In this document: positions 8,711 through 28,185 of the stretch, one piece after another
Layout: each line of letters begins with the position of its first letter
How positions within the stretch are numbered: position 1 is the stretch's first letter
IMG/VR virus record: IMGVR_UViG_3300047388_000264
Span: 1 to 60,180 of that record
Strand: one strand, 5' to 3'
Length of the DNA: 60,180 nt
DNA from: a virus
Taxonomy: Duplodnaviria; Caudoviricetes
Translations under genes and position numbers: made by a program
Notes under the pieces: generated by a model
What the model saw: the letters and a program-made list of their open reading frames with translations, nothing else
Told to the model about the DNA's origin: nothing
The model's database searches: none

Positions 8711-9003
8711 AACGCCCTCGCTTGTCTCTGGGCGACATAGCCTTATGGATCTGTGCTGCGCGACTCACCGCCTTCCGGCCCTCTTTGCTATGCGGCCCAC
8801 GTCTGCCGGGACCAAGAACCTCCGTAATCCTGCCGCTACGGATATGGAGCGTCCTTGCAATCGTGATGCGCGGGATCTCCTCCGCGTTCATCGCTTGAAT
8901 ACGCTGGATCATCCACGGTGGGAGCAGTTTCACTTCGCGTTCTCTCCTTGCGCGGGCTTCTTGGGCGGCGCGATCTGCTGCTCGATCATGGAAGCACCTG
9001 CCA
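8703..9003 (-). CDS. Hypothetical basic protein, possible HTH
   Basis: IPRITIARTLHIRSGRITEVLG is HTH-like; start uncertain. Confidence 0.35.
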
Positions 9004-9501
9004 TGTGATCGTAACGTCCACCGCGCCCGCTGTGATCGTGGAAATATTCGCAACCGTGGAGGTCAGAGCGAGAATCAGATTGGTCCCAGCGTAACTGACT
9101 ATCGGAACCGTTGGCAACGCGACACTGAAGTTTGTGTTTGCTACCGCTGCCATAAGATCAAAAGGCGTCGAAACGCAAGCTGTGAGCGTTCCAGTGACCC
9201 CCAGTGTTGCCGTGAGGGTAGCTTGCATCCCAGTGAATGCCGTAGTACTTTTGACGATACAGGAAAGTACCATCGCCTTTGCCGGGAGCGCAAAGATGGT
9301 AAGGCTCTGCGTGGTCGCTGCGGACTTCGCTGTTGTGACTACTGTTCCAACCTGATTTGTGATCGTGAAATTCGCACCGGAATTGGCAATCGACCATTTA
9401 GCGGATTGTACGGATGCGCCGGGATTCGTGGGAAAATAGTGAAGTGTTGTAGCTTGAGCAAAACCCATAGAGCTAATGAGAAAAAAGATTACTGCCAGCA
9501 T
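8986..9501 (-). CDS. Signal-peptide-bearing beta-sandwich virion/spike protein
   Basis: MLAVIFFLISSMGFA|Q; Thr/Ala/Val-rich beta strands. Confidence 0.55.
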   Translation of the reverse strand: MLAVIFFLISSMGFAQATTLHYFPTNPGASVQSAKWSIANSGANFTITNQVGTVVTTAKSAATTQSLTIFALPAKAMVLSCIVKSTTAFTGMQATLTATLGVTGTLTACVSTPFDLMAAVANTNFSVALPTVPIVSYAGTNLILALTSTVANISTITAGAVDVTITWQVLP

Positions 9502-11699
9502 CGTTTCACCCCGTTCACTGCCTCGACGTGTGCGCCAGTACCGGACCCGGCACAGGTATTGTCCACTCCACTTGTAACCGTGCAGTCTGAACAGAAAGTC
9601 ATTTTTCCATTGGTAAGCGTTCCGAGGGTAGCAAACGTCAAGACTCTCTCTTGCTGTCGAGCATTGCTATCAAACGCAGCAAGTACTGTAGTGCCATCCG
9701 AATCTAACAGTTCCATAACGTCGGCTGACTGCATGGCGACCCGTTGAAGTTTTTCCGTCACGTCGGTGGTTTTCAGGCTCACTACATGGAGGTCAGCCGT
9801 GGGAGCGTCGATATTGATTCCGAATCTTCCACCGTCCCCGTCCATAGTTCCCCCAGAGACTACTGTAAATGCATAAGGTATGTTTCCATCTGGATGTGAT
9901 GAACCGAGCGCCAACATGATTTCGCCAGCGTTCAAGGGAAAGAGTTGTCCAGCGCCTCCGCGATACGCCCCTAATAAAATCGCGGCATTGTCGGTTGTGG
10001 CCAGAGCAGAAGTGCCTAATATGTTACCAATAATTTGAGAACCGTAAGCCTGAATCGCCATGCTGCTATTTGGCAAAGTGTAACCATAGAAAAAAGCTCC
10101 CCCTTGTCCTGGGTATGCTTCTGCAATTGTTGCTACTTGTGCTGGTCCGTTCGCCGGCATCGTCATATCTTGAATTTGGTAGCCACCGAAATTATTAGCA
10201 GGATTGCTGAGAAAGGTCCACTCAGTGTTATTCAAGGTTCCAGCGCTACTCGTTAAATTTACAAATGGAAATCCTAGCGCGTCGTACAATGTTCCACCAG
10301 TCATGTTTACTCCAAAAGGCTGGCTACAAAGCCCCAGTCCCGCGTCGGCGGTATTGTCCAGATAGGTCGTAGTAGTGTTATCCGCGATGGTTGCTAGGAG
10401 AGCCTGGCAGGTGGAAGATGCTGCGATCGTATAAGCAACAGTCCGATAAAGTTTGCGCGCCGTGGTTCCCGCTGGACCCAAGGGAATCGCGCTAACCTGC
10501 ACCTTTCCGTCCATCGTCTTATCCGCAACCGTAACCGTCGCGGAGTTGAAAAGCATGTCGGTTTCTCCGCGCGGCATCACAAATGTCACTGCGTAATCGT
10601 GACTGCCGTTGTCCACGTTCCCCGCTCCCGCACCGGCTAGAGCAGTAGTAACTGCGGTGGGCGAATCGACTTGATTGGCTTGAAAATTGCCGAAGTTACC
10701 GATATTCCCCACGCCCGATTTGAACGTGCTCGAAGTTCCGTAAAGTTGCACGTCGCCAGCCGAGCCAGCGGGGAGAGTGCCGGAGCTTACGAACGCCTGC
10801 CATTGCGACATATCCACCGTATAAGTTCCACCACCCCCGTTGGTGCTAAGAACAATTCCGATCACTTGCCCCGAGGTTGGATAGGTTGCTCCAGCATCAG
10901 TACAATCACCCGCCACCGACGCGCTAATCTGGACGTAGTGCCCCGCCGTAGTTGCTCCATCGAACACACACCCATGTTGACCGGCTTCCTGGATCACGGC
11001 GCTCCCGGTCGTCCCCGCGCCTGAGTCCACGATCCCAATCGCCCCTCCAGTATCTCCAGCCCCGGAGATCACCGCCTTAGATGGTGCGCCCGTGAGTTTT
11101 GCGAGCTTGCTTACCGTTGTGCCCGTCATGGCGGCATTGGGAATCGTTTCGCATACCCCGGTGCCAACCAGAGTTCCGGTGGTGGTGATCGGCCCTCCGC
11201 TGATTCCGCATCCGGTATTGATGGAGGTTACCGAACCGCCCTTGTTGCTCACCGCCGCGCTGCTATTCCGAAACCCGTACAGCACGCCCGTAAGAGTCCC
11301 TGTGCCCGTTGCCGCCACATTCACCCGTACCCACGAAATATCCGCCGTGCCGTTCACCGCCTGAAGCGAGCCGCCCGTATTGCTCACAATCGGATTCACG
11401 AACCCGGTCGAAATCGTGCCCGCGAAAGATCCGAAGGACACCGTAGTGTTCACGCTCGATCCGCTCTGGAGCGTCACGGACACGCCGGTCATGCCGGTAC
11501 TTTGGTACATGAGCGTCCACGCCGCGCACCCCTTCTGCCGGTTATCGCCAGGGCCGTTAGCGGTAGCGGTCACCGGATAGTTCCCCGCTGCGGTGAACGT
11601 GAACGGGATGAAGCAATCCGGCTGAATGAGGGTGGAGCTTTGGGCGTGGAGCGGGGCGATCAGCAGCGCCCACAAGTAAAATATGTTGCGGAGTTTCAT
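9489..11699 (-). CDS. Large spike / receptor-binding protein candidate with signal peptide (736 aa)
   Basis: Likely start ATG 11699 (AAAGGA SD): MKLRNIFYLWALLIAPLHA|Q; Gly/Thr/Ser-rich multi-domain beta protein. Confidence 0.65.
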   Translation of the reverse strand: MKLRNIFYLWALLIAPLHAQSSTLIQPDCFIPFTFTAAGNYPVTATANGPGDNRQKGCAAWTLMYQSTGMTGVSVTLQSGSSVNTTVSFGSFAGTISTGFVNPIVSNTGGSLQAVNGTADISWVRVNVAATGTGTLTGVLYGFRNSSAAVSNKGGSVTSINTGCGISGGPITTTGTLVGTGVCETIPNAAMTGTTVSKLAKLTGAPSKAVISGAGDTGGAIGIVDSGAGTTGSAVIQEAGQHGCVFDGATTAGHYVQISASVAGDCTDAGATYPTSGQVIGIVLSTNGGGGTYTVDMSQWQAFVSSGTLPAGSAGDVQLYGTSSTFKSGVGNIGNFGNFQANQVDSPTAVTTALAGAGAGNVDNGSHDYAVTFVMPRGETDMLFNSATVTVADKTMDGKVQVSAIPLGPAGTTARKLYRTVAYTIAASSTCQALLATIADNTTTTYLDNTADAGLGLCSQPFGVNMTGGTLYDALGFPFVNLTSSAGTLNNTEWTFLSNPANNFGGYQIQDMTMPANGPAQVATIAEAYPGQGGAFFYGYTLPNSSMAIQAYGSQIIGNILGTSALATTDNAAILLGAYRGGAGQLFPLNAGEIMLALGSSHPDGNIPYAFTVVSGGTMDGDGGRFGINIDAPTADLHVVSLKTTDVTEKLQRVAMQSADVMELLDSDGTTVLAAFDSNARQQERVLTFATLGTLTNGKMTFCSDCTVTSGVDNTCAGSGTGAHVEAVNGVKRCWQ

Positions 11700-11709
11700 G
11701 AAGTCCTTT

Positions 11710-12018
11710 CTAGCCGGTTGGGTTGCCTTCCATTTGTGATTGCCTTCCGGCCTGAAAATTCGTATCTCGTTCCGATGCCGCCGCCTTTTCCTGTTGTTTG
11801 CCAACTTCGATTGACGCCTTACGAACCTCGGCCACAAGTTCATCCTTCAGATGGTTCGTGTTCTGCTCAACCTTAGCCACTTGCGTCATTGCTTCCTTCG
11901 CGTGTTGCGATGCCTTGTAGGAAAAGTACGCGGCGACCATTCCGCCCACTGCTCCGAACAGCCCCGGCACACCTACGGTAAGCCCGCGTATCAGTTCGAT
12001 CTGTACGGCATCGGTCAT
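11710..12018 (-). CDS. Membrane protein with TM helix and coiled coil (holin-like)
   Basis: N-terminal hydrophobic helix followed by a heptad-like charged segment. Confidence 0.5.
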   Translation of the reverse strand: MTDAVQIELIRGLTVGVPGLFGAVGGMVAAYFSYKASQHAKEAMTQVAKVEQNTNHLKDELVAEVRKASIEVGKQQEKAAASERDTNFQAGRQSQMEGNPTG

Positions 12019-12031: not shown

Positions 12032-12496
12032 TCAGCGCGGCCAAAAGAATCCCCTTAGCCCACAGATAATTTTACCCGTTCCCGGCGCTGGCAAGCTCCC
12101 GGTTGTGTTTGGGGCCGTCACGATATAGCTCACGGTGTTACCCGAATAGATCCTCAGCCCGCCCTGAATGTACTGGTACCACTTGACTGTTCCCAACTGT
12201 ACCAGAATGTTTCCGCAGTCGCGCAAGAACCGCGTCGCGTTCAGCGTGAGATTCACCGCCACGCGCCACGCGAGATCGCCGGAGCCATCGACAAAGCCGC
12301 CCAGCGTGAAGGCGTTGAACTGGCCAAGAATGATGCCGTCGTAACCGATAGGCACTTGAAACGAGAACACGGTCACGTCTCCCGCTGCCGGGGCAGGGAG
12401 AGGGATCGCGAAGCGCGGGGAGAACTGCACGGCCCCGGACGGCGGCTCCACTGGCCGATAGACTTCTGTGAGCGGATTGGCGGCAACGGCTCCCAT
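12032..12496 (-). CDS. Single jelly-roll-like minor capsid/penton candidate, paralog of 14149-14823
   Basis: Shares VPxGYDGxI, GFVDGSGDxxWR, RFLRDxGN, GGLRxYS and GxxWPR with the upstream paralog. Confidence 0.6.
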   Translation of the reverse strand: MGAVAANPLTEVYRPVEPPSGAVQFSPRFAIPLPAPAAGDVTVFSFQVPIGYDGIILGQFNAFTLGGFVDGSGDLAWRVAVNLTLNATRFLRDCGNILVQLGTVKWYQYIQGGLRIYSGNTVSYIVTAPNTTGSLPAPGTGKIICGLRGFFWPR

Positions 12497-12502
12497 AAGC
12501 GG

Positions 12503-14134
12503 CTACGCCGGCAACCCCCACTCTCGCTCATCCATCTTGAAACACGCTGGCAGTTTCGCGCAGCCCAGCCGTTCGTAGTCGATGGTCGAGTACAGCCGGA
12601 AGTCGCGCGCAAGGCAGTTGTCAAACTCGTTAGGGATGTAGGGATTCGGGCGACGCCCCGCCGCGCCAGTGGGCGGAGTAATGATGATGCTACAAGTGAC
12701 TACGGCAGTCAGACCGTTGGCATCTGTAACCGTGACGGTATAGGAATACGGCCCCTGAAGCTGAGGGATGCCGGAAATCACTCCGGTTGTGGCATTCAGG
12801 GTTAAGCCGGGCGGAAGCGCCCCGCCCGTAACGGCAAACGTAAATGGCCCCGTGCCAGTAGCGATCAGTTGCGCGGAAAAGAAGCTGCCAATCGTGCCGG
12901 TATTGGCAAGCGGGCAGGCGAGCGTAGGCGGCGTCCCCTGCGTGAAAATCGTGTACGCAACCGTGCTATGCGGCGTGAACTCCGTGTTGGTCTGCAACGT
13001 CCAGCTACCGTCTGATTTTTGAAGCGCCATCCCCGATAGCTGATATGGTGGATGAGTAGAGGCTGGTTGTCCGGGATACGGAGTTACGGTCGAATCAAAA
13101 AACGACACGGGTGCGCCGAAGGTTGCGCCGTTGTAGGTCGAAAGCCAGATGTAGGAATTGCCGCCTACGCCAAAGGCGATTACGTCCCAGAACACGGTCG
13201 CATTGCCAGCTATGCTCTCCGCCGCTACCAAATCGCGCGCCTCATACGAATTGCTGGGGATGGTGACCGCGCCTCCAGGATCGAGGTTGATCACACTCCA
13301 CGTGGGCGTAACAAGGCTGTCCCCGATCAGCACGAAAGGCTCAATGATCCCATCGGCCCCTACTAACTCAGAGAACGGAAAGAAAATCTTGCCGCCCGAA
13401 AGCAGCATCAGACTTGTGCCGTTTTCGACCGCATCCGGTGGGTTGACCGTCCAGGCGATAGATGGCGCGCCTACGACTCCACCCGCTGAAATCTGGAAAT
13501 AATAAAAGTCGAAGACGGTGGGTCCGCCATGCTGATCCTGGCAGATACAGTGAATCTTGCCGCTAGCCTCCATCGCCATGTCGGACGGAACGATAGCGTT
13601 GGCCGTGATAACATTGGTATCCGCGCCCCAAACGCCAGCCGTCCAGGTTGCGTAGTCCACTTTCGTTCCGGCACCGCCAGCAGCGAACACAATCCAGCGT
13701 GTTCCACCGGGCTGGACCTTAATCAAGATGGAGGTGAGCGTCCCGAATAGGTTGATGGTGGGGTGTGGTGCACTCAACCCACCGTAGGAATCAGTGGACG
13801 CATCGAAAGTTTGCAGCAGAGGTGGACGATTTGCGGTCTTCGATGCCACCCCAACAAAATAGATCACCGTTCCGCTTCCCGGATAGAATGCGTTTGCCGG
13901 TCCTTCGATCAAGCCAGAGGAACCGCCTACGATGCTCCACGTGGCGCGGCCATCGCTACTCTTGAGAACTTCTACGGCTTGACCGGCGAATGGCTCCAGC
14001 CATGTGTACCACGCACCATTGATGAACCACGGACCCGCAGATACGCCCGTACCAGCCTGCCCGGTCTGGGACATTTGCGCGAAGTTGGTCGCATCCGGCG
14101 CGACGGGAGGCAGGGTGACAAGAGGAGGAGCCAT
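12503..14134 (-). CDS. Beta-propeller/sialidase-like protein with an Ig domain (543 aa), vertex/spike candidate
   Basis: Likely start ATG 14134; Asp-box-like KSSDGRATW and STYNGATF; He_PIG-like LPPGLTLNATTGVISGIP. Confidence 0.6.
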   Translation of the reverse strand: MAPPLVTLPPVAPDATNFAQMSQTGQAGTGVSAGPWFINGAWYTWLEPFAGQAVEVLKSSDGRATWSIVGGSSGLIEGPANAFYPGSGTVIYFVGVASKTANRPPLLQTFDASTDSYGGLSAPHPTINLFGTLTSILIKVQPGGTRWIVFAAGGAGTKVDYATWTAGVWGADTNVITANAIVPSDMAMEASGKIHCICQDQHGGPTVFDFYYFQISAGGVVGAPSIAWTVNPPDAVENGTSLMLLSGGKIFFPFSELVGADGIIEPFVLIGDSLVTPTWSVINLDPGGAVTIPSNSYEARDLVAAESIAGNATVFWDVIAFGVGGNSYIWLSTYNGATFGAPVSFFDSTVTPYPGQPASTHPPYQLSGMALQKSDGSWTLQTNTEFTPHSTVAYTIFTQGTPPTLACPLANTGTIGSFFSAQLIATGTGPFTFAVTGGALPPGLTLNATTGVISGIPQLQGPYSYTVTVTDANGLTAVVTCSIIITPPTGAAGRRPNPYIPNEFDNCLARDFRLYSTIDYERLGCAKLPACFKMDEREWGLPA

Positions 14135-14148
14135 AAGCGCTGCTACTA

Positions 14149-14823
14149 CTATCTTGGCCAGTACCATCCGCTTATCCCCGCGATAATATTCCCGTTCGCA
14201 ATAGCCGCCGCTGGAGCGACTGCGGCGTACACACTGACCAAATCCCAACTATAAACTCGCAGCCCACCGCGCGGAATCGGCGATGGAAACTGAAACGAAC
14301 CGATGGACACCTGGACGTTGCCGTGATCGCGTAAGAAGCGCCCGCCCGTTCCGGCAGGGTCCACGAGATAATCCGACGCGAGCCGCCATGAGATATCGCC
14401 GCTGCCGTCCACAAAGCCTGTGCCGGTGAACTCAAAAATGATCTCTGTGATCACGCCGTCGTAGCCGAGCGGTACGCGCTCCTGAAGCACGATTGTATCG
14501 AGGCCATTGAATCCTGGGCCGGGGACCTGAAACGCTGAGAGTGGCTGACTGCCGATGGGCCGGAAGCGCCTGCCGTCAGGCGGCATAGAGATCCACGGAG
14601 GCGTCTGGTAATAACCGCGCCCACCGGGGTAGTTGTGCTCGATCCCGCCGCACGCTAGTAGGTTCATCCACTGCGAGAGATCCCGACTCAAGCAGTTGTC
14701 CCACACGTTTGCGCCATACATCTGGCTGCGCATCGGCGGCACGTTGGGCGTGATCGGATTCGCCGGGTTAGGCGGTAGGATGTTCAGCGGGACCACGTGC
14801 AGGTTGGGATTGTAGGGGATCAT
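14149..14823 (-). CDS. Single jelly-roll-like structural protein (224 aa)
   Basis: Start ATG 14823 by ATGA overlap; paralog of 12032-12496; ends in three tandem TAG codons. Confidence 0.6.
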   Translation of the reverse strand: MIPYNPNLHVVPLNILPPNPANPITPNVPPMRSQMYGANVWDNCLSRDLSQWMNLLACGGIEHNYPGGRGYYQTPPWISMPPDGRRFRPIGSQPLSAFQVPGPGFNGLDTIVLQERVPLGYDGVITEIIFEFTGTGFVDGSGDISWRLASDYLVDPAGTGGRFLRDHGNVQVSIGSFQFPSPIPRGGLRVYSWDLVSVYAAVAPAAAIANGNIIAGISGWYWPR

Positions 14824-15410
14824 GCCGAGTAGACCCCTTGCGCCTTGAGCAACTGAACGAACTGATCGGGCGGTAAGCACGGCTCCGCGATGAATAGCAC
14901 AAGCTGGCAGTGAACCTCCGCGCTATTGGAATTATAAATCTCGCAGTCCAGTTTCGCCGGATCGCCGATGATGCGCGGCTGCGAGAGCAAATGTGGCGCG
15001 CGAAACGTGCCGGTTGCGAATTGGCCGCTCAAGCCGATCAGCGTAGGGTCGCACAGGAAATTCATCGCTCGCGGGTAGTCGGAAAAGAGCGGTGTCTCCG
15101 TACAGACGTCCGTGATCTGGACGTGAACCAGCGGAGCCAGCCCGCTATCGACCTCGCTGGCGAACATCGCGAAGGAAAGACCCCACAGAAAAGAGCCCGG
15201 CTGCGGAGCGATCTGATACTCCACTTGCGAGTAGGCCGCAATAGGCTCCTCCAGCGAATCCGGAACGATGTAATGGCGCGGGCGGAACGCGGAGGCCCGG
15301 CGCAGCACGTCCATCTGGCCGAGGATCAGCGCCCGGTAGCTCGTTGGCACGAGCAACTGGGAATTGCTCATTGCGAAGCCGTCGCAAATGTCGCGCTCGA
15401 TGGTGCTCAT
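14820..15410 (-). CDS. Jelly-roll-like minor structural protein
   Basis: VQITD...LFSD...PRII...LDCEIYN...CQLVLF resembles the 137-aa and 276-aa neighbours. Confidence 0.5.
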   Translation of the reverse strand: MSTIERDICDGFAMSNSQLLVPTSYRALILGQMDVLRRASAFRPRHYIVPDSLEEPIAAYSQVEYQIAPQPGSFLWGLSFAMFASEVDSGLAPLVHVQITDVCTETPLFSDYPRAMNFLCDPTLIGLSGQFATGTFRAPHLLSQPRIIGDPAKLDCEIYNSNSAEVHCQLVLFIAEPCLPPDQFVQLLKAQGVYSA

Positions 15411-15550
15411 GCCTTCGCCGCCTTTGCCTTATTGTCCACGCGAGCCAGTAATTCCGCTACTCGCGCTCCCAGTTCGGCGAGTCGCTGCTCCGTAGTCCGC
15501 GCCTGATCTCTCAATTCGATGATAATCTCATCAAGCCTCTTTACGGGCAT
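15407..15550 (-). CDS. 47-aa coiled-coil peptide
   Basis: Overlaps both neighbours; heptad pattern LDEIIIELRDQ...LAELGARVAELL. Confidence 0.45.
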   Translation of the reverse strand: MPVKRLDEIIIELRDQARTTEQRLAELGARVAELLARVDNKAKAAKA

Positions 15551-16371
15551 GGAATCCTCCGCGCGCCGTGAAACAACAACTGGTAGGTCTGCGGCAACAC
15601 CGTAGGCGCAAGCAAAAGAGATGCGATGTCGAACCGGATCACAGACGCTACCTTATAAACCAGCGGTGGGCACGGCCAGAAGTTGTTCTCGCCACTCGAC
15701 AGCGCCGGATCGAAGTGAAAGAACCGATTCGCATTGATCGGAATATTGGACCGCTGAATCCGGTTCGTGTCGTACAGCCAAATCGAGAAGGGCGACGGCG
15801 AATGGTACGTGGTCATTTCCACCCGCCACAACTCGAAATCGTAATCGTCAATCGCGATGGTTTGCTGCGGGATCACCGCGCCGCCCGCGTAGGCGTTCAC
15901 GGTCAGCGTATATGGGTAGCAGAACCGCTTCAGCTTGTACTTGTAACTGGACGGGGCCGGATCACTCGATTGGCCGGGGATGCGCCGCGCGCCCGTAAAG
16001 ACAAGCTGCGAGGCGAAGGTTGAGCCGCCAACGGCGAGCCGCGCCACGTCCAGAAGATCGAAGCCGATGCGGGAATTGACGGGATAGCGTTTCTCCGGCA
16101 GCACGCATTGGCCTTGCGCGAAACTGGCAAGATTGATGTAGGTTGAGAACCACTGGCGCTTCAGGTTGTCGTAAATCTGGATGCCGCCCGCCGTTGCGGT
16201 GTTGATGACAGTTTCCATTCCGGCCCAATTTCGGCAGATGAAGTCGTAATCGTAGATGTTGATGCCGTTCACCTGACCGGGGTAGCTGCTGCCATCGGTC
16301 AAAGCATCGGCATTGAAGGCATACTGAAAGAACTGATCACCGTTGCCTGGAGGCGTGATGTAGTCGTACAC
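15541..16371 (-). CDS. Internally duplicated (double) jelly-roll-like structural protein
   Basis: Two homologous halves: DYDFICR/DYDFELWR, IQIYD/IWLYD, PEKRYPVNSRIGFDL/PPLVYKVASVIRFDI, QLVFTGARRIP/QLLFHGARRIP. Confidence 0.65.
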   Translation of the reverse strand: MYDYITPPGNGDQFFQYAFNADALTDGSSYPGQVNGINIYDYDFICRNWAGMETVINTATAGGIQIYDNLKRQWFSTYINLASFAQGQCVLPEKRYPVNSRIGFDLLDVARLAVGGSTFASQLVFTGARRIPGQSSDPAPSSYKYKLKRFCYPYTLTVNAYAGGAVIPQQTIAIDDYDFELWRVEMTTYHSPSPFSIWLYDTNRIQRSNIPINANRFFHFDPALSSGENNFWPCPPLVYKVASVIRFDIASLLLAPTVLPQTYQLLFHGARRIPCP

Positions 16372-16382
16372 TCAAGGCCCCC

Positions 16383-16796
16383 TTAGGACGTTGCGTACCG
16401 ATTCGCGCCCACGAAAAGAATCTGGATCGTGTTTTGCGCCACGCTCAAATCCTGAATGTCAATCCAGATGCGACCGCTCGCGGGATAGACCACTTCCGGT
16501 AGCCAAGGGAACGGATCGCCGGGGTTGTTCGGGTAGTTTGTTGAGTAAACCATCCCCGACTGGAGATAGTACCCTTCCCCGTCCTGAAAGCGCACAGCGA
16601 ACAGGCCGGTGCTCGTGAAGACAAGTCCACGGAAGCAAAACGCGGCTTCGCTGAAGATCGAGACTGTCTGCCCTTGCAGCACTTGGCTGGCGCTCAACAC
16701 CACGTTGTAGGTGTAGGAAAAACTAACGTCAACGAACCCCGTAGGTGACGCGTCATTCAAGCCCTGAACGCCCACCGGAGCGATGGCATTAAACAT
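16383..16796 (-). CDS. Single jelly-roll-like structural protein homologous to each half of 15541-16371
   Basis: FSYTY...AAFCFR...VRFQD...PEVVYPASGRIWIDI...IQILFVGANRY. Confidence 0.6.
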   Translation of the reverse strand: MFNAIAPVGVQGLNDASPTGFVDVSFSYTYNVVLSASQVLQGQTVSIFSEAAFCFRGLVFTSTGLFAVRFQDGEGYYLQSGMVYSTNYPNNPGDPFPWLPEVVYPASGRIWIDIQDLSVAQNTIQILFVGANRYATS

Positions 16797-17004
16797 AAAC
16801 TCGTGTACCCCGATCTCCCCCTGTCAAGGAAGTACCCGGCCCCACTCGGAGGAAGATGGGGCCGAGCCGGAGATGCGTTTGCGCTCGCACTCCGAAACAC
16901 AACACAAGAGGCAGGAGAGCGGGACTGCGTAGGAACCGCCCTCCAGTTGCTCTTGCCACGCCGTGCAGGACGCAGCCCAGTACAAAGGCTTTGCCCGGCC
17001 CGAT
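16797..17004 (-). promoter_or_regulatory. Structured 208-nt intergenic region after the putative major capsid gene
   Basis: One of the few long gaps in the operon; hairpin cggcccca...tggggccg at about 16837-16864. Confidence 0.4.
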
Positions 17005-17625
17005 TTACTGGACGCCGCGAGCGTGGAAGCCGTCGAGTACCAGTGTCGCCAGCAAACCGACGCCGCCCGAGGCGGTAGCGGTCAGCGTGAACTGGGTGCC
17101 GTTGAACCAAGCGTAGAAGCTGGCTTGGTTGTCGATCACGATGTTGATCTCGCGCGGATTCGTGGCATTCGCGCCAGGGATGCCGTTGGTAACAGCCTGT
17201 GCGTTGGAGATGCCCGAGAAGCCCGAGATTCCGCCGCCCGCTGTGTAATACCAGATGGGGCCGCGATTGTAGGACTTTTGGCCGATGTAGAACTCCAGCA
17301 CCATATTGTCGTTCAGTGCGATGAAGTCCTTGATGAGAATGTTCTCATCGACGTGAATCTGGATCGCCATCACCGCGAAAGCTTCGGGCGCATCCAGCTT
17401 CTTCGGGGTCTGCACATTGGTCAGGTTGATGGCCCGGCCAGCGGCTTGCGCGAAGAATGCCTGTGACTGGCTTCCAGCCAGCACGTTAGCGGCTTGCGCG
17501 ATGGATAGTTGATCGTACAGCGGCTCATGCTGCACGTCCATCGCATTCGGCTGATAGGTCGTTCCAAGGAATGCCTGGAAGATTTGAGCGGCTTGCGCTC
17601 CACCGGGTTGTTGATAAGTTGCCAT
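17005..17625 (-). CDS. Putative major capsid protein, single jelly-roll type (206 aa)
   Basis: Strong SD (GAAGGAGA); follows the Arg-rich core gene; beta pattern PLYD...FF...TN...F.V.AI...LEF.IG...LVLDG...RGVQ. Fold is inferred. Confidence 0.6.
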   Translation of the reverse strand: MATYQQPGGAQAAQIFQAFLGTTYQPNAMDVQHEPLYDQLSIAQAANVLAGSQSQAFFAQAAGRAINLTNVQTPKKLDAPEAFAVMAIQIHVDENILIKDFIALNDNMVLEFYIGQKSYNRGPIWYYTAGGGISGFSGISNAQAVTNGIPGANATNPREINIVIDNQASFYAWFNGTQFTLTATASGGVGLLATLVLDGFHARGVQ

Positions 17626-17660: not shown

Positions 17661-18527
17661 TTACCCGCGCCGACGCCGGTAGAAACCAACGCCAGCGCCC
17701 GGCATCTGTACGACCTGCTGCCGCATCGACCGATCCGGTACCGCGAAACCCATCGTGGGTACGATGTCCCCTACGCCCGACAGCGACAACTGCGAAGAGA
17801 TACTGGCTGGTGCCACTACGTCCAGCAGTCTCGAAAGGGTCAGCGCCGCGCCACCGGCCACGACGCCAGCCGCCACGCCACCCGGCAGGAACTTGTGAGC
17901 CAAGTAGCCCGCCATTGCCGCGCCCACGCCCGTTACGAGCGGCACGGTGAACGAACTGGACGGAATCATACCCGTCAGCGAAGCCGGGATGAGGGTAGGC
18001 AGATACTTGGTGGCTGCGACGCCAATCAGTACCCCACCCGCCATTTCGACCAGTTGCTTGTTGATCCCAGCCGGATTCCGGCGACGCCGGTAGTGATGGC
18101 GGTTCCGTGCGACCGAGTTGCGACGGCGACGCCTCCGGTTGTGGACAGTCACCACCGGATTTCTCCGGCGACGACGATGATGCACCCGCGCCACGGCATG
18201 GCGGCGACGAGTGTTACGAGAACGACGATGTTTTCTTGCCACGCTCTTTCTCCTTTTTTTGTGTGGGTTCAAAGCCCCGAACTCCAGGAGTACGGGGTTT
18301 CTTCGCTTGATCGTGCGACGGACTTTCCGACGCCGCGCGGACGGGTTCGCTTTGACTCCCCGCCTTCTCAATTCCTTTTTCAGCGTCTTCACGCTGTACC
18401 GGCGAATGACGGGCGCGCTTCGCTTGCGCCTCGCCGTGTTGTGCCGCCGCACCGCTTTTACGCGGCGTACCTTGCGGACCCTGCGTCGCGGATTCGCGAT
18501 CCGCGTGACCCTGCGAATGATTGCCAT
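17661..18527 (-). CDS. Arg-rich DNA-condensing core protein with hydrophobic C-terminal domain
   Basis: N-terminal half is poly-Arg/Lys with repeated NP; C-terminal half has three hydrophobic helices and LSGVGDIVPTMGFAVPDR. Confidence 0.75.
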   Translation of the reverse strand: MAIIRRVTRIANPRRRVRKVRRVKAVRRHNTARRKRSAPVIRRYSVKTLKKELRRRGVKANPSARRRKVRRTIKRRNPVLLEFGALNPHKKRRKSVARKHRRSRNTRRRHAVARVHHRRRRRNPVVTVHNRRRRRRNSVARNRHHYRRRRNPAGINKQLVEMAGGVLIGVAATKYLPTLIPASLTGMIPSSSFTVPLVTGVGAAMAGYLAHKFLPGGVAAGVVAGGAALTLSRLLDVVAPASISSQLSLSGVGDIVPTMGFAVPDRSMRQQVVQMPGAGVGFYRRRRG

Positions 18528-19131: not shown

Positions 19132-21234
19132 CTACTTCACGGCCACCGCCTCTTGCTTGTACTTATCGAGAACCTGTTGCGACGGCCCCGCTGGCATCAG
19201 TTTCAGATGCGGAACCTCCACGCGGCGATCCACGGCGAACTTACCGCCGCCGATCACGCCAGCGCGCGCAAAAAACGTAATATCTTCGCCGCTCTTGCCG
19301 AATCCGTAGCGGCTGTCGAGCATCGGCAGAAAGGCATCCGGCCCGCCTGCTTTCTTCAGCAGTTCGGCGCGCATGAGCACGACCGGGAAGCCGGAATAGC
19401 CGATGGACTTCAGATCATCGTCACCCTGCATCAGCTTCGCGTAATCGAAGGAGTGCGGGCGGCAGAACTTCACGTCGTGCGTTTGCCCCTTCTGAAGTTC
19501 GATGCCGCTAGGCGTTAGTTCCACATCTGACAACTGGCCGCATGAGATCGAAGCCCCGGCTTCGGTCAGTCCGATATCGTGCCGCATGATCCAGCACCAC
19601 CCCACCACGGCATCCAGTTCGGGATGCGCGTCAAGATCCGCCATCAGCATCTCGAACTGATCGAAGGTGAGCATGTTGTCGTCGTCCAGCCACAACACGA
19701 ACTCCGGTTGCGGTTCGGCTTCGATCACGGCCTTAGCGAAAACCATTCGGGTCATGGTCACATCGGAAGTGTAGCCGTTGATCGGGATGACATCGTACTT
19801 GTTCACCAGATTGGCGAACAACCAATCCCACGAGTTTTTCCACGGCCCCGAAAAGGTTTCGCCCGGCGTGCAGGTTGCGACGATGCGGCGCTTGCCGGTT
19901 GATGTGGTGCCCGATACGGTTGGCATCGCGGCAGGAGCCGTTGGTATCGCGCCCGCAAAGTTTAACTGTTGCCGCACCTTGAAAATCGCTAACCCTTTTT
20001 CGTACTCTTCGGGGCGGTTGTGATAGGCGTCTACGCCGTCCGCTTCCCGCTGTTTATTGATCCAGTGCTTGTGCGGGAACACCAAATGCCGCGCGTCGAT
20101 CACCACGCCGTCTCGCCGCGCCATTGCACAGAAATCGTTATCGGCAAACATGCCGGAGTATTCCGGGTAAAACACCCACCCGAAGCGCTCGTAGCGCTCG
20201 CGGGAAAGAATCGGCATTACAAGGATGCCGCGCTCGTGCTCGGTGGGCGTGTTGGTATTGACTTCGATCACGAAGTCGCCCGGAGTATTCGGACTTCGGC
20301 CACTGAGGTTATCGCGCTCGATCACGTCTCTCAGTCGGCCATCCCATCCCTCGCACGGCCACTGATCGTCCGCGTTCACAATCAGCACGTCGCCGGTTGA
20401 GGCTTCCGCCGCAAGGTTCACGCCGTCCACGTAGCACTTGCGGCCAGTATTCCAGATGACCTTATCTTGCGCGCGAAGGCCGAATGGCGTAGGTCTTACG
20501 ATATTACCGGGATAAAGAGCCTCGGTCTGGTTGCGGTTCGGGAATCCCCACCGCTCATCCACGCACAACACGTACTCCACTTGCTCGGGATGCACCGCCG
20601 CGCCGATCCACGCATCGTAAATCTCGCGCCACTTATCGGGACGGGCGGAGGTGTGCAAAATACTGAAGGCGAACTTGCCGCGCTCTTTCGTGGCTGGCGC
20701 GGCGCTACGGTGATTCAGCATCTCATCGGCAGTTCTTAGGGCCTCTGCCTCACTGACGGGTAGCGGTGCTTTCACTGCCGCCAGCACAATCGTCAACTTC
20801 GTTACCCCGTAGGAATCCGTCGTCAGGTTCGATGACCTCACGTTGAACGCGCCCTTGATCCCGTACGCCTCATGAAAGCGGTTGTAGTGCGGATCGCCAG
20901 CCGTGTGGTACAGGAAAGAATTGCGGTTCCAATACGAGCAGTGCGTGGGGTCTTGCCACGCGCCCGGCCCGTCCGTGGTGGGTACAACGATCTCGACCGT
21001 GCCGCCCGGCTTGAGGACGCGATGGATTTCATTGAGTGTCCAAATTTTGCTTTTTAGGTGCTCGATGATGTCGTGCGCCCGAATGTGGTCTACCGAGTTA
21101 TCGGCCCAAGGCCATCCGAGATCCAAATCAGCCGCTACGAAATTCGCGTCGGTTGCCCACGGCGGAAGCCACTTGTCAACGCCAATAAATCCTTCGATGA
21201 GTTGATCGCTACAACCGAGGTTGAGATTAAGCAT
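19132..21234 (-). CDS. SAM methyltransferase fused to two GT-A (GT2-like) glycosyltransferase domains (700 aa)
   Basis: LNLGCS...HDIIEHL...RVLKPGG...DPTH; then NADD and ADND motifs; then WLDDD and GEDITF motifs. Confidence 0.8.
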   Translation of the reverse strand: MLNLNLGCSDQLIEGFIGVDKWLPPWATDANFVAADLDLGWPWADNSVDHIRAHDIIEHLKSKIWTLNEIHRVLKPGGTVEIVVPTTDGPGAWQDPTHCSYWNRNSFLYHTAGDPHYNRFHEAYGIKGAFNVRSSNLTTDSYGVTKLTIVLAAVKAPLPVSEAEALRTADEMLNHRSAAPATKERGKFAFSILHTSARPDKWREIYDAWIGAAVHPEQVEYVLCVDERWGFPNRNQTEALYPGNIVRPTPFGLRAQDKVIWNTGRKCYVDGVNLAAEASTGDVLIVNADDQWPCEGWDGRLRDVIERDNLSGRSPNTPGDFVIEVNTNTPTEHERGILVMPILSRERYERFGWVFYPEYSGMFADNDFCAMARRDGVVIDARHLVFPHKHWINKQREADGVDAYHNRPEEYEKGLAIFKVRQQLNFAGAIPTAPAAMPTVSGTTSTGKRRIVATCTPGETFSGPWKNSWDWLFANLVNKYDVIPINGYTSDVTMTRMVFAKAVIEAEPQPEFVLWLDDDNMLTFDQFEMLMADLDAHPELDAVVGWCWIMRHDIGLTEAGASISCGQLSDVELTPSGIELQKGQTHDVKFCRPHSFDYAKLMQGDDDLKSIGYSGFPVVLMRAELLKKAGGPDAFLPMLDSRYGFGKSGEDITFFARAGVIGGGKFAVDRRVEVPHLKLMPAGPSQQVLDKYKQEAVAVK

Positions 21235-21799
21235 GGACAACCTCCGGTATGACGTGCGCACCGATAGGATCGAACTGCTTAACAAACGCAGCGATGGGCC
21301 AGTAAAACGCTCCATGCTCCAGATGCAAGCGAATTGTGCTCTCCGGCCACTGCCACCACGCGATCCGCAACAGCGCCTCCACCGTCTTTTCATCGAAGCG
21401 GTACTTAGTCACCCGCGCCGGATTCCCCACGGCGATTCCGTACGCTGGCACGTCGGTAAAAACCGTGGCGTTGGCCGCGATCACCGCGCCGTGGCCCACC
21501 TTGACGTGTCCGCAAATTGTGGCACCGTAGCCGATCCAAACGTCGTTCTGAATCTCAATGCCGCCGCCCTTTTCGTAGGAGCGGTCTTGCATGGGGTTCG
21601 CCGCTGTCTTCAGTAGCATCGTGTCGAACGGATAGGCCGATACCGCATCCGTGCGGTGATTTCCGCCCGCCAACAACTTGACTCCCTGCGAAATGGCGCA
21701 CCATTTTCCAATCGAAATCTTTTCGTCACCCCACCTGTGGACACACAGATCCGCGTAATAAGAATGCGCGCCGATTGTGCAATACTCCGGCAGACTCAT
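21227..21799 (-). CDS. CatB/Vat-like hexapeptide-repeat O-acetyltransferase
   Basis: IGKWCAI...GGNH...YPF...IQNDVWIG...IAVGNPARV.KYRF...IAWWQW. Confidence 0.9.
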   Translation of the reverse strand: MSLPEYCTIGAHSYYADLCVHRWGDEKISIGKWCAISQGVKLLAGGNHRTDAVSAYPFDTMLLKTAANPMQDRSYEKGGGIEIQNDVWIGYGATICGHVKVGHGAVIAANATVFTDVPAYGIAVGNPARVTKYRFDEKTVEALLRIAWWQWPESTIRLHLEHGAFYWPIAAFVKQFDPIGAHVIPEVVHA

Positions 21800-21828: not shown

Positions 21829-22023
21829 GTGGATTACCTCAAGGCATTGCGCGAAGCGCCGATTACACCGAAGACGGTTCCCGGCTACATCGTTCGTGAA
21901 CCCAACGACGGTTTCGACCAAGAGTTTTACGGCATGATCAAGGAAATGTTGCGCCGGGGATACGAGATAAGACTCGTGTTCAAGAACGGCGAGGAAGTTA
22001 CGCTTTTGCCGATTCCGCATTAG
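21829..22023 (+). CDS. Small hypothetical ORF antisense to the structural operon
   Basis: 64-aa ORF with plausible composition; the competing minus ORF 21796-22020 is equally possible. Confidence 0.3.
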   Translation: MDYLKALREAPITPKTVPGYIVREPNDGFDQEFYGMIKEMLRRGYEIRLVFKNGEEVTLLPIPH

Positions 22024-22895
22024 TCCGTTATCCCCTGACTCGTACCCATGAGCGGGCGCGGAATGCGATAAACCCCACCGTCCAGATACAGATGCTCGTT
22101 GCGAATGTCGTAGCGTAGCATGGGACGCAAACCGTTGCTCTCTTCCGAGAAGCGGTGAAAGTAATCGTACTCCTCCACCTTGCCGTCAAACTTCTTCTGA
22201 GCGTGATACGTCACGTGGGTGACGGTTCCGATCACTGCGCTTTCCTTGCCCTTCAGTTCGCCAAGTCCGAGCGCCCCAAGGTCCAGGGATTGATCACCCC
22301 CCTCGATGTACAAGTGTTTGCCATCTTCGGTTGAGCACAACAATACCGGCCCGTTAGGATTCATCTTGCGCGGATTCACCCAGGCGTCCGTAAAGCCCTT
22401 CACCAGATGCGTTACCGCTTTGCCCCTTCTATCCACCCACCCCTTGATCTTTCCGAAGCCGCTCTTACGTTTTTGCGGATTCTGCTCTTTCGTGAACGCG
22501 ATGATGACGTTCTCACCCTTCACGGTTTTGACTTTCAGTTCGATCAATTCGCCCAGTGCCGCAAGGTGGGAATGGACGTGCATTTCCTCGCTCACCACTT
22601 CCACGCGCTTGCTTGGCAGGCCGGTGAAGGATTCGCGCATGGCGACCGCGCCCGCTTCGGGGTTGCGCTTCTTGTTCCGCGCCCCACTCCGTTTAAACCT
22701 CTCCCGCTTCCCCGTAGCCGAATCCACGATCACGAACTCCGCATGCACGCCCTTGTTCTGCTGATCCGTGCCATAGCGATGCGCCGCCGTGTGCGACTCG
22801 AAGTGTTTGCGGCGCGCACCGATCACGACATCGTAGCCGCCCGAGCCAGAGCGCGGCGTGGGTGCGAGATTGCGCTTGCGCTTGGTTGCGGCCAC
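22020..22895 (-). CDS. Basic NP-motif virion protein with globular C-terminal domain (291 aa)
   Basis: GGAGG SD then GTG 22895 (MAATKRKRNL); KKRNP, EQNP, WVNP and MNPN motifs. Confidence 0.6.
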   Translation of the reverse strand: MAATKRKRNLAPTPRSGSGGYDVVIGARRKHFESHTAAHRYGTDQQNKGVHAEFVIVDSATGKRERFKRSGARNKKRNPEAGAVAMRESFTGLPSKRVEVVSEEMHVHSHLAALGELIELKVKTVKGENVIIAFTKEQNPQKRKSGFGKIKGWVDRRGKAVTHLVKGFTDAWVNPRKMNPNGPVLLCSTEDGKHLYIEGGDQSLDLGALGLGELKGKESAVIGTVTHVTYHAQKKFDGKVEEYDYFHRFSEESNGLRPMLRYDIRNEHLYLDGGVYRIPRPLMGTSQGITD

Positions 22896-22984
22896 TACGC
22901 GCACCTCCACACGATCACGCCGATGAGCGTAACCGCTACCGCCGTGACGGTCCAGAATGCGTGCATGAAGCCGCGTAGCGCCAT
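22895..22984 (-). CDS. 29-aa single-TM peptide
   Basis: MALRGFMHAFWTVTAVAVTLIGVIVWRCA; fills the gap exactly between neighbours. Confidence 0.45.
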   Translation of the reverse strand: MALRGFMHAFWTVTAVAVTLIGVIVWRCA

Positions 22985-22987
22985 AGT

Positions 22988-23266
22988 TTACTTGTCGTCG
23001 CTCCTTGCGGTCGTTTCTTCCGTCTTGCGTGTCGTCACGGTGCTTGGAGTCGGGGGCATCGGGATTGTCGGATCTTCGGTCGTCCCCTTCGGCTTCACTC
23101 GCATCAGGAGCGCACCGGCGAATCCCGAATCCAAATTGGCGATCACCTGGAAGGTCTGACCGTCGCTCGACATGAACTTTGCCACACCGATCAACGCGCA
23201 CGAGAACAGAACCACCAGACCTACCAGCAGTAGGACAATCGGCTCGATTTTGTTGTCCGAAGGCAT
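22988..23266 (-). CDS. Small membrane protein (92 aa)
   Basis: MPSDNKIEPIVLLLVGLVVLF...; TGATG overlap. Confidence 0.55.
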   Translation of the reverse strand: MPSDNKIEPIVLLLVGLVVLFSCALIGVAKFMSSDGQTFQVIANLDSGFAGALLMRVKPKGTTEDPTIPMPPTPSTVTTRKTEETTARSDDK

Positions 23267-23620: not shown

Positions 23621-24103
23621 TTACCTCCGTCTCCGTCCACCGCTTCCACCGAGAAGCCCCGGCAGAATCATCGCTGCTGCAATCGCCAGCGGAATCGCGT
23701 AGGGGATACCCATGATCGGCGCGCTCAAGATCCCCATGTAGTTCCCACTGCTAAAATCCGTCTGGATGGCCGCGAAGTCCGCCGCGATGTCGCCCATCCC
23801 CATGCCGTTGAGCGACCCCTGTGCGCACGTACCGCAGCATCCCACGCCGGTTCCGAGCGGGCGCACGTTGCCGCTCACGTACGCCGCGACAGGGTTCATG
23901 TCTCGATTGGGAACACTGAAACCCTGCGTTGCCAGGATCTCACCGATGCCCATGCGGTAGTCCATCGTCGCTTGCATATCACGGTCAGGAACCGAGAAGC
24001 CCTGCGTCGTGAGAATGTCGCCCATGCCTGCGTGCCGCGCGGCGAAGAAGCCGGGAGGCAGCTTGTGAATCCCCGGAGCCGGATGCAAATTCAGTTGTGC
24101 CAT
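23621..24103 (-). CDS. Virion membrane protein with two GDI-x-T-QGFSVP(D/N)RDM repeats
   Basis: Start ATG 24103 (GAGAGGAG); two internal repeats; C-terminal TM plus GGRRRR. Confidence 0.65.
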   Translation of the reverse strand: MAQLNLHPAPGIHKLPPGFFAARHAGMGDILTTQGFSVPDRDMQATMDYRMGIGEILATQGFSVPNRDMNPVAAYVSGNVRPLGTGVGCCGTCAQGSLNGMGMGDIAADFAAIQTDFSSGNYMGILSAPIMGIPYAIPLAIAAAMILPGLLGGSGGRRRR

Positions 24104-24113
24104 AAATCTCCTC

Positions 24114-24422
24114 TCACTTCTTGAACGCAAACACCGCGAGCGCCACGAAACCAACCAACAGCAAACCGTTCAAGTTGATCCCGCTCCCGAAGGCATTCGC
24201 CCCGCCAGCCGCCGCCGCTCCTACGTCTGTCGCAATTCCGTGCGCTGCTGAACCCACCGCGCCGATCACGCGCGGATCGTAGGGATTCATGCACGCCAAA
24301 TATGGCAGGCAATCCGGCGAACCCCAGCCCGCGTAAATCGAATCCAGAAACGTGCATGGGTCCGCTCCGCAGTCCACGCCGCCCGCTCCGGTATCTCCGA
24401 GACTCAAGGTGCCGAGGTTCAC
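24114..24422 (-). CDS. Small Cys-containing tail-anchored membrane protein
   Basis: MNLGTLSLGD, CGADPCTFLD; C-terminal TM plus KK. Confidence 0.65.
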   Translation of the reverse strand: MNLGTLSLGDTGAGGVDCGADPCTFLDSIYAGWGSPDCLPYLACMNPYDPRVIGAVGSAAHGIATDVGAAAAGGANAFGSGINLNGLLLVGFVALAVFAFKK

Positions 24423-24856
24423 CGCCGCCCTCCAATCATCATGAGAGCGAAGACCACAACACCGAGAATCAAGTACGGAGTAGTGCCTACTTGTGTCGGG
24501 ACGACGTTACCGACATGCAAATCAGCTTGAACTTGCGCAACCGTGGTGGTCGGACCCGCGTAAGTATCCCCGGTCGGAAGCGTGTCGCCCGCCTTCACTA
24601 TCGCCGAAGGATTTGACCAATCCACCACCGAAGGAACCGTGGACGTTCCGCCACAAGAAACAATCGTATTGCCGTTAGCATCAATGCCGCCCGGAATGCA
24701 CGGGGGCTCCGCAGTCGGAGCACCGGCGTTGTACGCAGCCGCGCATTGTTGCCACGTTCCGCAATCACTGGACGGAGAGAAGAAATCGAGGAAGCCGCAC
24801 GGATTTGCGCCGCACGTCAAGTTCAGATCGCCGATCCCGACAGCGCCGAGCCTCAT
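24419..24856 (-). CDS. Small Cys-containing tail-anchored membrane protein, paralog of 24114-24422
   Basis: MRLGAVGIGD, CGANPCGFLD; C-terminal TM plus RR. Confidence 0.65.
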   Translation of the reverse strand: MRLGAVGIGDLNLTCGANPCGFLDFFSPSSDCGTWQQCAAAYNAGAPTAEPPCIPGGIDANGNTIVSCGGTSTVPSVVDWSNPSAIVKAGDTLPTGDTYAGPTTTVAQVQADLHVGNVVPTQVGTTPYLILGVVVFALMMIGGRR

Positions 24857-26037: not shown

Positions 26038-26043
26038 AAAAAC

Positions 26044-26337: not shown

Positions 26338-26347
26338 TACGCTCCTC

Positions 26348-28184: not shown

Positions 28185-28185
28185 A

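Follow-up and report, generated by a model that had tools for sequence, protein, structure and literature searches.

The virus record IMGVR_UViG_3300047388_000264 is the complete genome of an uncultured bacterial-type virus of 60,180 bases; the window analysed here covers the whole record. On its minus strand lies a row of small genes, and one of these encodes a 276-amino-acid (aa) protein which is a true tandem duplication consisting of two consecutive jelly-roll sandwiches. By profile comparison, the doubled unit of ~130 residues is present three times: twice in tandem in the 276-aa protein and once in the 137-aa protein encoded beside it. The row is best read as a shell and vertex module, and the complete ~60-kb genome as that of an undescribed lineage of tailless, probably internal-membrane prokaryotic viruses; the probability of this reading is put at about 0.6.

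The two halves of the 276-aa protein are still alignable, as an earlier note on this DNA had claimed from inspection by eye. Residues 1-140 and 141-276 share 28% identity over 128 columns in BLASTP (expectation value, E, 3e-8). Their Smith-Waterman score is 84, compared with a mean of 26.8 (standard deviation 4.6) for shuffled sequences; this corresponds to a z of 12.6 and was reached in none of 2000 composition-preserving shuffles. Profile-profile comparison with hhalign, based on a 100-sequence alignment, gives a probability of 98.6% and E 1.4e-15. The motifs quoted in the earlier note (DYDF..R, I.(I/L)YD, P..Y...S.I.FD and QL.F.GARRIP) are conserved columns of the halves. In the linker between them, S136, D137, P138, P140 and S141 are each at least 90% conserved among 100 homologs.

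AlphaFold2, using the same 100-sequence alignment, predicts two all-beta domains with 8 and 7 strands as assigned by DSSP; the predicted local distance difference test score (pLDDT) is 91.3 and the predicted template modelling score (pTM) 0.89. The best Foldseek matches of this model in the PDB are double jelly-roll capsid proteins: the phiCjT23 capsid (7zzz, E 8e-5), PM2 P2 (2vvf, 1e-4) and PRD1 P3 (2e-4). P3 of PRD1/PR772 is among these best matches, and the best capsid E-values span 8e-5 to 3e-4. The jelly-roll-like fold proposed in the earlier note is supported both here and in the 224-aa protein of the row, whose barrel best matches single jelly-roll capsids. The next PDB match of the 276-aa model is peptidylglycine hydroxylating monooxygenase, with scores equal to those of the capsids and a slightly higher template modelling (TM) score of 0.28-0.31; in the available text of PMC8812541, this enzyme is listed as a cellular double jelly-roll protein. 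The 276-aa protein has no Pfam match, the models for PM2, PRD1 and nucleocytoplasmic large DNA virus (NCLDV) capsids included, and its family profile yields a single chance-level match among PDB sequences. Prediction of a homotrimer from three copies scored 0.00 against a mark of 0.42 and weighs neither way.

The 137-aa protein is a full-length, stand-alone copy of the same unit, again as the earlier note had it. With hhalign it matches the N-terminal half of the 276-aa protein at 98.5% (E 2.1e-15, 113 columns) and the C-terminal half at 97.7% (E 2.5e-12, 117 columns). When single sequences are compared by BLASTP, only the last ~40 residues match the two halves (E 2e-5 and 4e-4). Length is well conserved in the 137-aa family; 19 of its 21 sequences have 135-144 aa, and the two other open reading frame (ORF) calls have 176 and 188 aa. 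A joint alignment of 39 units has as its common columns the F of DF, the P and Y of P..Y, the D of YD, an I, and the Q, F, G and R of Q.LF.G..R. By homology the 137-aa protein is a single jelly-roll, and it is a candidate for a vertex (penton) or capsomer-partner protein.

The duplication was described in the earlier note as relatively recent; the family data contradict this. In a maximum-likelihood tree of the 39 units, the single, N-terminal and C-terminal copies form one clade each (supports 92/96, 67/89 and 97/97, respectively). The stems between these clades measure 1.7-1.9 substitutions per site, compared with mostly 0.02-0.7 for branches within them; the tree leaves the closest pair among the three clades unsettled. 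Among the 92 homologs without large insertions, similarity between the N- and C-terminal units exceeds z 3 in 72 and z 5 in 52, the most distant member included. Since each copy forms one clade and the similarity is family-wide, both duplications are older than the radiation of the sampled viruses. On these alignments the retained similarity looks maintained, as a conserved property of the family and not a sign of a young duplication. Such retention is unusual, as the earlier note had stated; according to the available text of PMC8812541, double jelly-roll proteins are without detectable pairwise similarity, even among double jelly-roll capsid proteins. The coordinates of the row and of other genes in the window are given in Table 1.

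Table 1. Positions of the jelly-roll row, its parts and selected other genes in the window
Feature	Position	Strand	Remarks
154-aa protein	12032-12496	minus	stand-alone copy of the 224-aa barrel
581-aa protein	12503-14248	minus	He_PIG immunoglobulin (Ig)-like domain at residues 443-523 (Pfam E 9e-14)
224-aa protein	14149-14823	minus	called gene; the longest ORF, 14149-14880, has 243 aa
196-aa protein	14820-15410	minus	own family
276-aa protein	15541-16371	minus
C-terminal barrel of the 276-aa protein	15541-15948	minus	residues 142-276 and stop codon; AlphaFold2 strands 145-158, 170-174, 178-186, 195-200, 237-239, 243-251, 261-274
SDPAPS linker between the two barrels of the 276-aa protein	15949-15966	minus	placed by pattern
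N-terminal barrel of the 276-aa protein	15967-16371	minus	residues 1-135; AlphaFold2 strands 10-20, 30-38, 43-50, 63-67, 88-96, 101-107, 113-115, 122-132
137-aa protein	16383-16796	minus	single copy of the unit doubled in the 276-aa protein
Non-coding spacer	16797-17004	minus	208 nucleotides (nt), GC-rich hairpins; after the 206-aa gene
206-aa protein	17005-17625	minus	own family, most conserved of the row
288-aa protein	17661-18527	minus	N-terminal ~150 residues arginine-rich with repeated (R/K)nNP motifs; C-terminal part hydrophobic
Tyrosine integrase	3031-3714
DnaB	39420-40751
HerA/DUF87 ATPase	47154-48635

A second paralog pair is formed by the 224-aa and 154-aa proteins, and here too the earlier note was correct. 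The 243-aa ORF shares 42% identity with the 154-aa protein over 132 aa (BLASTP E 1e-25; shuffle z 37), and comparison of the 243-aa family with the 154-aa protein by hhalign gives a probability of 100% and E 2e-38. The AlphaFold2 model of the 224-aa protein (66 sequences) has a pLDDT of 80.4, with mostly 87-97 in the barrel blocks; it consists of a disordered N-terminus, a helix at residues 40-63 and a C-terminal 8-stranded barrel at residues 85-223. Foldseek ranks 1-10 and 12 in the PDB are single jelly-roll capsid chains of P23-77 VP16, HHIV-2, HCIV-1 and SH1. These matches have E 1.3e-3 to 3.7e-3, probability 0.97-1.00 and TM (by target) of 0.33-0.51, a modest structural score which shows fold-level likeness only; the root-mean-square deviation (rmsd) from the HCIV-1 and HHIV-2 chains is 4.8-5.9 A. 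The 224-aa family has no PDB sequence match better than E 0.08, and Pfam searches with 14 members gave chance-level matches only. On its model, the 224-aa protein is a single jelly-roll similar to the small capsid proteins of sphaerolipovirus-type viruses, and a candidate protein of the vertex or shell.

The 581-aa protein, encoded between the members of this pair, is related to it at its C-terminus, where ~45 residues show homology to residues ~50-95 of the 243-aa ORF. Its Ig domain matches a tail-protein PHROG. In the related loci L001, L011, L012 (twice) and L013, it is fused in one frame with a C-terminal domain like the 154-aa protein, and the resulting proteins of 620-751 aa carry Ig-like or other outward domains. 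Judged from these relatives, the 581-aa protein is probably the outward or host-recognition part of a long paralog. In the window, the 581-aa and 154-aa ORFs lie in the same frame and are separated at 12497-12505 by TAG and two codons, followed by ATG. Read-through of this TAG, or an error, was considered and rejected on account of the arrangement in L004, the closest long relative; there the corresponding genes are joined by an ATGA stop/start overlap in the other frame (~11700-11716). The split is thus a real gene fission/fusion polymorphism and not an assembly error.

The two remaining proteins of the row, of 206 and 196 aa, each form a family of their own. The 206-aa family has a mean column identity of 60% in a 15-sequence alignment and varies least in length (202-228 aa). 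It has no Pfam, PHROG or PDB sequence match, and Pfam searches with all family members gave chance-level matches only. Its ESM Atlas model (pTM 0.77) has NCLDV Capsid_N as its nearest named structure (TM 0.48, below the bar), and the nearest named feature clusters are PM2 P2_N/P2_C and PRD1 P3 at 0.75-0.77, also below the bar. The 196-aa protein has an Atlas model with pTM 0.66, named neighbours with TM below 0.5 (the second domain of GH172, at 0.49, included) and a sub-threshold feature lead to PM2 P2_N/P2_C at 0.77. For both proteins a jelly-roll fold is a lead only, taken from sub-threshold model scores. The profile of the 196-aa family was built from up to 87 database homologs (160-215 aa) and the locus sequences; none of the 87 homologs has a Pfam domain or an informative name. 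The 196-aa gene ends in an ATGA overlap with the start codon of the gene that follows, and its conserved position suggests a structural role.

The earlier note grouped six genes of the row into one paralogous family with about seven jelly-roll domains. The groupings described above stand; the single family does not. Comparison with hhalign separates four unrelated sequence families: the 137-aa protein with both halves of the 276-aa protein, the 224-aa with the 154-aa protein, the 206-aa protein, and the 196-aa protein. The highest probability against any other row family is 0.7% for the 206-aa protein and 1.7% for the 196-aa protein. The 196-aa protein had been taken for a diverged copy of the unit; it has no BLASTP match in the rest of the row, and its alignment scores lie below the shuffle mean. 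Fold evidence, direct or by homology, supports five of the seven domains, those of the 206-aa and 196-aa proteins being the exceptions. All six proteins lack matches in Pfam and PHROGs, and the 206, 196, 224 and 276 family profiles find nothing meaningful among PDB sequences.

The spacer after the 206-aa gene is a conserved feature of the row; a spacer of 132-273 nt follows the homologous gene in all 12 relatives checked. A stem-loop in it displays the loop AUCUUCCUCCGAGU, which contains the anti-Shine-Dalgarno-like CCUCC. The same loop is kept in L004 (7575-7706) and L005 (910-1100) on different stems (GGCCCC/GGGGCC in the window, GCGGGC/GCCCGC in L004). The whole-spacer fold has a modest z of -2.36, and no terminator-like site above chance was found after the 206-aa gene. 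The spacer may set a different expression level for the downstream genes, and base pairing between the CCUCC of the loop and the ribosome-binding site of the 137-aa gene is conceivable.

Database searches with the 276-aa protein give 105 homologs, none of them annotated. The contigs that carry 16 of these measure 53.7-67.3 kb, and no homolog is on a longer contig. Among 1.84 billion representatives, the unit profile finds at least 910 clusters (50% identity) at E<=1e-3, and 485 at E<=1e-10. The best 150 representatives comprise 106 clean two-unit and 15 single-unit proteins; none has three units. A further 17 are scored in three pieces, and 12 in two pieces of which just one is a full unit, in most cases as the result of an insertion; the three-stretch matches were examined as possible three-unit proteins and rejected, as they are two units broken by an insertion.

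On the unit profile, these insertions are found at positions ~51-56 of unit 2 or near position ~110 of unit 1. In unit 2, the DYDFELRR strand (D') and the F.I.LYD strand (E') are separated by an inserted domain of ~95-135 aa. In unit 1 of some relatives, a complete FG-GAP beta-propeller is inserted between the last two strands (E up to 6e-50). In the jelly-roll topology both loops are at the same end of the barrel; this is consistent with an outward-facing surface. A ~400-aa propeller of this kind is found in the loop of the first barrel in L024 (6354-8510) and in proteins P0336 and P0374; in L024 there is an in-frame stop where the propeller insertion begins. In two loci the two-unit gene looked divided into a pair of single-unit genes; this was rejected, since neither is a clean pair of one-barrel genes: L024 has the in-frame stop at the propeller start, and L028 a frameshift inside the N-terminal barrel. 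Two tandem two-unit genes occur in L020 (3729-5938) and L022 (7047-9589), and two single-unit genes in L014 (68-926).

In total, 35 related loci were collected, in which the gene order 288-206-137-276-196-224-long paralog is kept. A search of viral contigs with the single 276-aa sequence found no locus, and with the alignment two; a pattern-limited scan of 185,579 species genomes found none. Neither the 276-aa nor the 206-aa protein has a tblastn match in 50,697 GenBank phage records. For the four families of the row there is, in these sequence searches, no Pfam, PHROG, PDB-sequence or GenBank-phage relative.

The ends of the window share a repeat of ~89 nt (1-89 and 60074-60162), which indicates that the genome is complete and either circular or terminally redundant. 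A short tandem copy of CCTCGTGATTTGCATGTA follows the right-end repeat. In addition to the integrase, DnaB and ATPase genes of Table 1, the genome encodes DNA methylases, a replication initiator, an SNF2-methylase fusion, a YqaJ exonuclease, a topoisomerase-like protein and two glycosyltransferase fusions. No tRNA was found in the window. Searches of ~94 ORFs against Pfam, PHROGs or both gave no match to a portal, tailed-phage large terminase, HK97 capsid, tail tube or sheath, although divergent forms are possible; the sole terminase label is PHROG 2666 (terminase large subunit), which matches the HerA/DUF87 ATPase (E 3e-17). The 64 smaller, unassigned ORFs include matches to Cpn10, DUF3303, a dual-specificity protein phosphatase and two PHROGs, one for an endolysin and one labelled 'tape measure' (E 1e-11).

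The setting of the row was compared with two complete relatives (60,646 and 58,934 bases, CheckV 100%). The genes common to all three genomes form one block at ~9.5-32.7 kb of the window which includes the row; the replication genes are not common to them. The block also holds a transglutaminase-core protein and a 568-aa coiled-coil protein. Several of its proteins have hydrophobic, apparently membrane-spanning segments, mostly at the C-terminus (e.g. in 23621-24154, 24419-24916, 26348-26953 and 28186-29040). On the minus strand at 23621-30214, proteins of 177, 165, 201 and 284 aa have a C-terminal hydrophobic segment followed by R/K residues; in the same region such a segment is near the C-terminus of a 236-aa protein and N-terminal in a 212-aa protein, and a 274-aa protein contains several of them. 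The 236-aa protein, which contains a transglutaminase-like cysteine-protease core, may be a maturation protease.

The 288-aa gene and the genes at 27771-28184 and 22020-23201 encode very basic proteins in which (R/K)nNP motifs recur. The last of these, a 393-aa protein, has 611-634 aa in relatives and is well conserved only over its C-terminal ~150 residues. Such proteins may condense the genome, or may be processed at the NP motifs. The 288-aa protein has homologs at the same place in 14 related loci and in both complete relatives, and its gene is the first conserved one upstream of the row; it has no Pfam or PHROG match. Its hydrophobic C-terminal part is probably membrane-spanning, which makes it a candidate for a DNA-binding, membrane-anchored core protein. 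The conserved genes without annotation in the block include those at 22020-23201 and 31029-32735.

No conserved P-loop protein was found in the block shared with the two complete relatives. Three further candidates for a packaging ATPase were rejected: the ~560-aa P-loop proteins of the relatives are UvrD-type helicases, their ~280-aa P-loop proteins have neither a Pfam match nor a homolog in the window, and the P-loop of a 634-aa protein in the relative G002 is not conserved. The HerA/DUF87 ATPase of the window has no match in either complete relative and is thus not a core packaging gene of the group.

Directly upstream of the row, at 19132-21393, is a gene for a fusion of a methyltransferase with a GT2 glycosyltransferase (753 aa), partly conserved in relatives; a fusion of a glycosyltransferase with a sulfotransferase (491 aa) is encoded at 58113-59588. 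Glycosylation or sulfation of virion proteins is a possible function of these two fusions. Downstream of the row are a 784-aa protein (9489-11843), conserved in relatives only at residues ~46-192 and so composed of a conserved anchor and a variable remainder, and a 171-aa protein (8986-9501) with a signal-peptide-like start; both are probably further host-recognition proteins.

Known double jelly-roll capsid proteins (phiCjT23, PM2, PRD1) share several features with the 276-aa protein. In them, too, a single chain of about this size forms two 8-stranded jelly rolls in succession, a small single-barrel protein is encoded by an adjacent gene, and insertions lie in loops that would face outward. 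In contrast, the barrels of the 276-aa protein are clearly alike in sequence, also to a free-standing paralog. An FtsK/HerA-type packaging ATPase is not a conserved partner gene here, and the genome of ~60 kb differs from the <20 kbp given for prokaryotic double jelly-roll viruses in the available text of PMC8812541.

The Helvetiavirae-type single jelly-roll capsids (P23-77 VP16, 3zn5/3zmo; HHIV-2, 6h82; HCIV-1, 6h9c; SH1, 6qt9) are the best solved matches of the 224-aa barrel. In such viruses the shell over the internal membrane is made up of several distinct small barrel proteins, and the same could apply here. The match has an E of only ~1e-3, with no sequence similarity or profile membership. 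The 224-aa barrel also differs in that it follows a disordered N-terminus and a helix and recurs C-terminally in long spike-like proteins, and the genome here is two to three times larger. The gene trio of ATPase, small capsid protein and large capsid protein of Helvetiavirae-type viruses is not present here.

For the vertex, the closest analogy is PR772, in which the short P31 and the long host-recognition protein P5 share a barrel by sequence and the penton base is a 3+2 heteropentamer, as described in the available part of PMC6750898. The 224-aa protein and the 581-aa plus 154-aa proteins (or the fused proteins of 620-751 aa) are similarly a short barrel protein and a long barrel-sharing protein with an Ig-like domain. 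Unlike in P5, where it is N-terminal, the common barrel is C-terminal here; the window and L004 encode the long protein as two genes, and neither P31 nor P5 is related in sequence.

Portogloboviridae offer a further comparison. Their member SPV1 is an archaeal virus with a genome of ~20 kb, and its chains (6oj0) are absent among the Foldseek matches listed for the 276-aa or 224-aa protein. A jelly-roll shell and the lack of a packaging ATPase, which SPV1 does not have according to the available text of PMC8812541, would be common to both. The very basic proteins described above could make a nucleoprotein core.

The interpretation of the row as a shell and vertex module is based on the repeat and the paralogies, the structural matches of the 276-aa and 224-aa models, the gene order kept in the related loci, the lack of tailed-phage families in the ~94 ORFs and the membrane-anchored and basic proteins in the conserved block. 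The 276-aa protein would be a capsomer protein of the double jelly-roll kind, with large insertions only in the D'E' and HI loops, which would face outward. By analogy with P31/P5 of PR772/PRD1, the 224-aa and 581+154-aa proteins could build the fivefold vertices, a short barrel protein being mixed with a long one that bears the receptor-binding arm. The 137-aa protein may be a further shell or vertex subunit, and the 206-aa and 196-aa proteins may add to the shell or cement it. The similarity of the three unit copies would be kept by constraint, presumably because all three make equivalent contacts in the lattice.

A number of observations weigh against this interpretation. No sequence or hidden Markov model link to any known capsid family was found. 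Superposition of the 276-aa model on 7zzz, 2vvf, 7ook and 1cjd is poor (TM by query 0.20-0.28, rmsd 17-19 A), which may reflect the alignment and not the fold; with global TM low across the PDB matches (0.20-0.31, rmsd above 15 A), the pseudo-hexagonal side-by-side orientation of the barrels is not demonstrated for the model. In BFVD, the matches of this model are a mixture of tail, fibre and capsid proteins with similar E-values. The HerA/DUF87 ATPase is the only FtsK/HerA-type ATPase in the genome; as it lies 30 kb from the row and is not found in the two relatives, the capsid-plus-ATPase signature that is usual for the realm is absent. The ESM Atlas clusters related to the 206-aa and 196-aa proteins are mostly 'Uroviricota' where the phylum is known.

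Two of the objections concern the distribution of roles within a tailless module. The only two-unit protein of L024 bears the ~400-aa propeller, which is more easily accommodated if the protein sits at a vertex or serves in host recognition than if it is part of every capsomer. The 206-aa protein may be the true major protein, given that its family is the most conserved and least variable in length and that its gene is the first of the row, followed by the conserved spacer. The roles may thus be swapped, with the 206-aa protein (perhaps together with the 196-aa protein) as the major shell protein and the 137/276 family at vertices, in turrets or in host recognition; viruses with one or two single jelly-roll capsid proteins would be the model. 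This arrangement, the chief alternative, is possible, if rather doubtful. It agrees with the Atlas lead of the 206-aa protein toward capsid N-terminal barrels and with the variability of the two-unit protein, which is the greatest in the row (propeller or ~110-aa insertions; two paralogs in L020 and L022). However, the fold of the 206-aa and 196-aa proteins is represented by sub-threshold Atlas scores only, while it is the 276-aa model that has solved double jelly-roll capsids as its best PDB matches.

Other objections are shared with explanations that place the row outside a tailless virion. Minor tail proteins and a tail-fibre connector are among the matches in BFVD (E 2e-4 to 1e-3); together with the tail-protein match of the 581-aa Ig domain, the ORF that matches a 'tail length tape measure' PHROG and the Uroviricota labels, they would fit a tailed phage in which the row encodes beta-sandwich tail, baseplate or receptor-binding proteins and the head, portal and terminase are unrecognisably divergent. 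This is unlikely, as no portal, terminase, HK97, tail tube or sheath match was obtained among the ~94 ORFs searched, most of the conserved block is taken up by membrane-anchored and basic proteins, and the 276-aa and 206-aa proteins are without matches in the GenBank phage records. The top PDB ranks of the 224-aa protein are, moreover, occupied by capsids of membrane-containing tailless viruses. It is still more improbable that the row encodes non-virion accessory proteins, e.g. two-barrel enzymes or carbohydrate-binding proteins, secreted or associated with the membrane, comparable to PNGase F or the hydroxylating monooxygenase. The equal scores of the monooxygenase, its slightly higher TM and the nearby glycosyltransferase genes are in keeping with such a function; however, there are no catalytic family matches, and the row genes are core and syntenic in every relative examined, unlike the replication and accessory genes. 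Five consecutive small beta proteins with paralogs, beside membrane and basic proteins, also suggest the layout of a morphogenesis module.

If the row is indeed a shell and vertex module, a more specific history can be proposed tentatively. The viruses of ~54-67 kb would be a separate high-rank lineage of membrane-containing icosahedral viruses. Their double barrel would have arisen by tandem duplication of their own single-barrel gene, independently of the PRD1-adenovirus double jelly-roll proteins, and a gene of the parent type would still be adjacent. The three copies would occupy one lattice, and the genome would be condensed by arginine-rich core proteins and not pumped by an ATPase.

No description of this virus group was found in full-text literature searches; supplementary files, which may contain contig lists, were outside the search. 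The 910 clusters suggest a sizeable, unrecognised group of tailless viruses whose genes are 'hypothetical' throughout in standard phage annotation. Its genomes are about three times larger than the <20 kbp given for prokaryotic viruses with such capsids in the available text of PMC8812541. The origin of double jelly-roll proteins is disputed; they are ascribed there either to fusion of duplicated viral single-barrel proteins or to capture of a cellular two-barrel enzyme. Known double jelly-roll proteins cannot settle this because their halves share no sequence similarity. Here, a two-barrel protein, both of its halves and a free single-barrel paralog can be aligned across hundreds of natural variants; consequently, direct tests can be made of the order of events, of what constrains each copy and of the rules of assembly.

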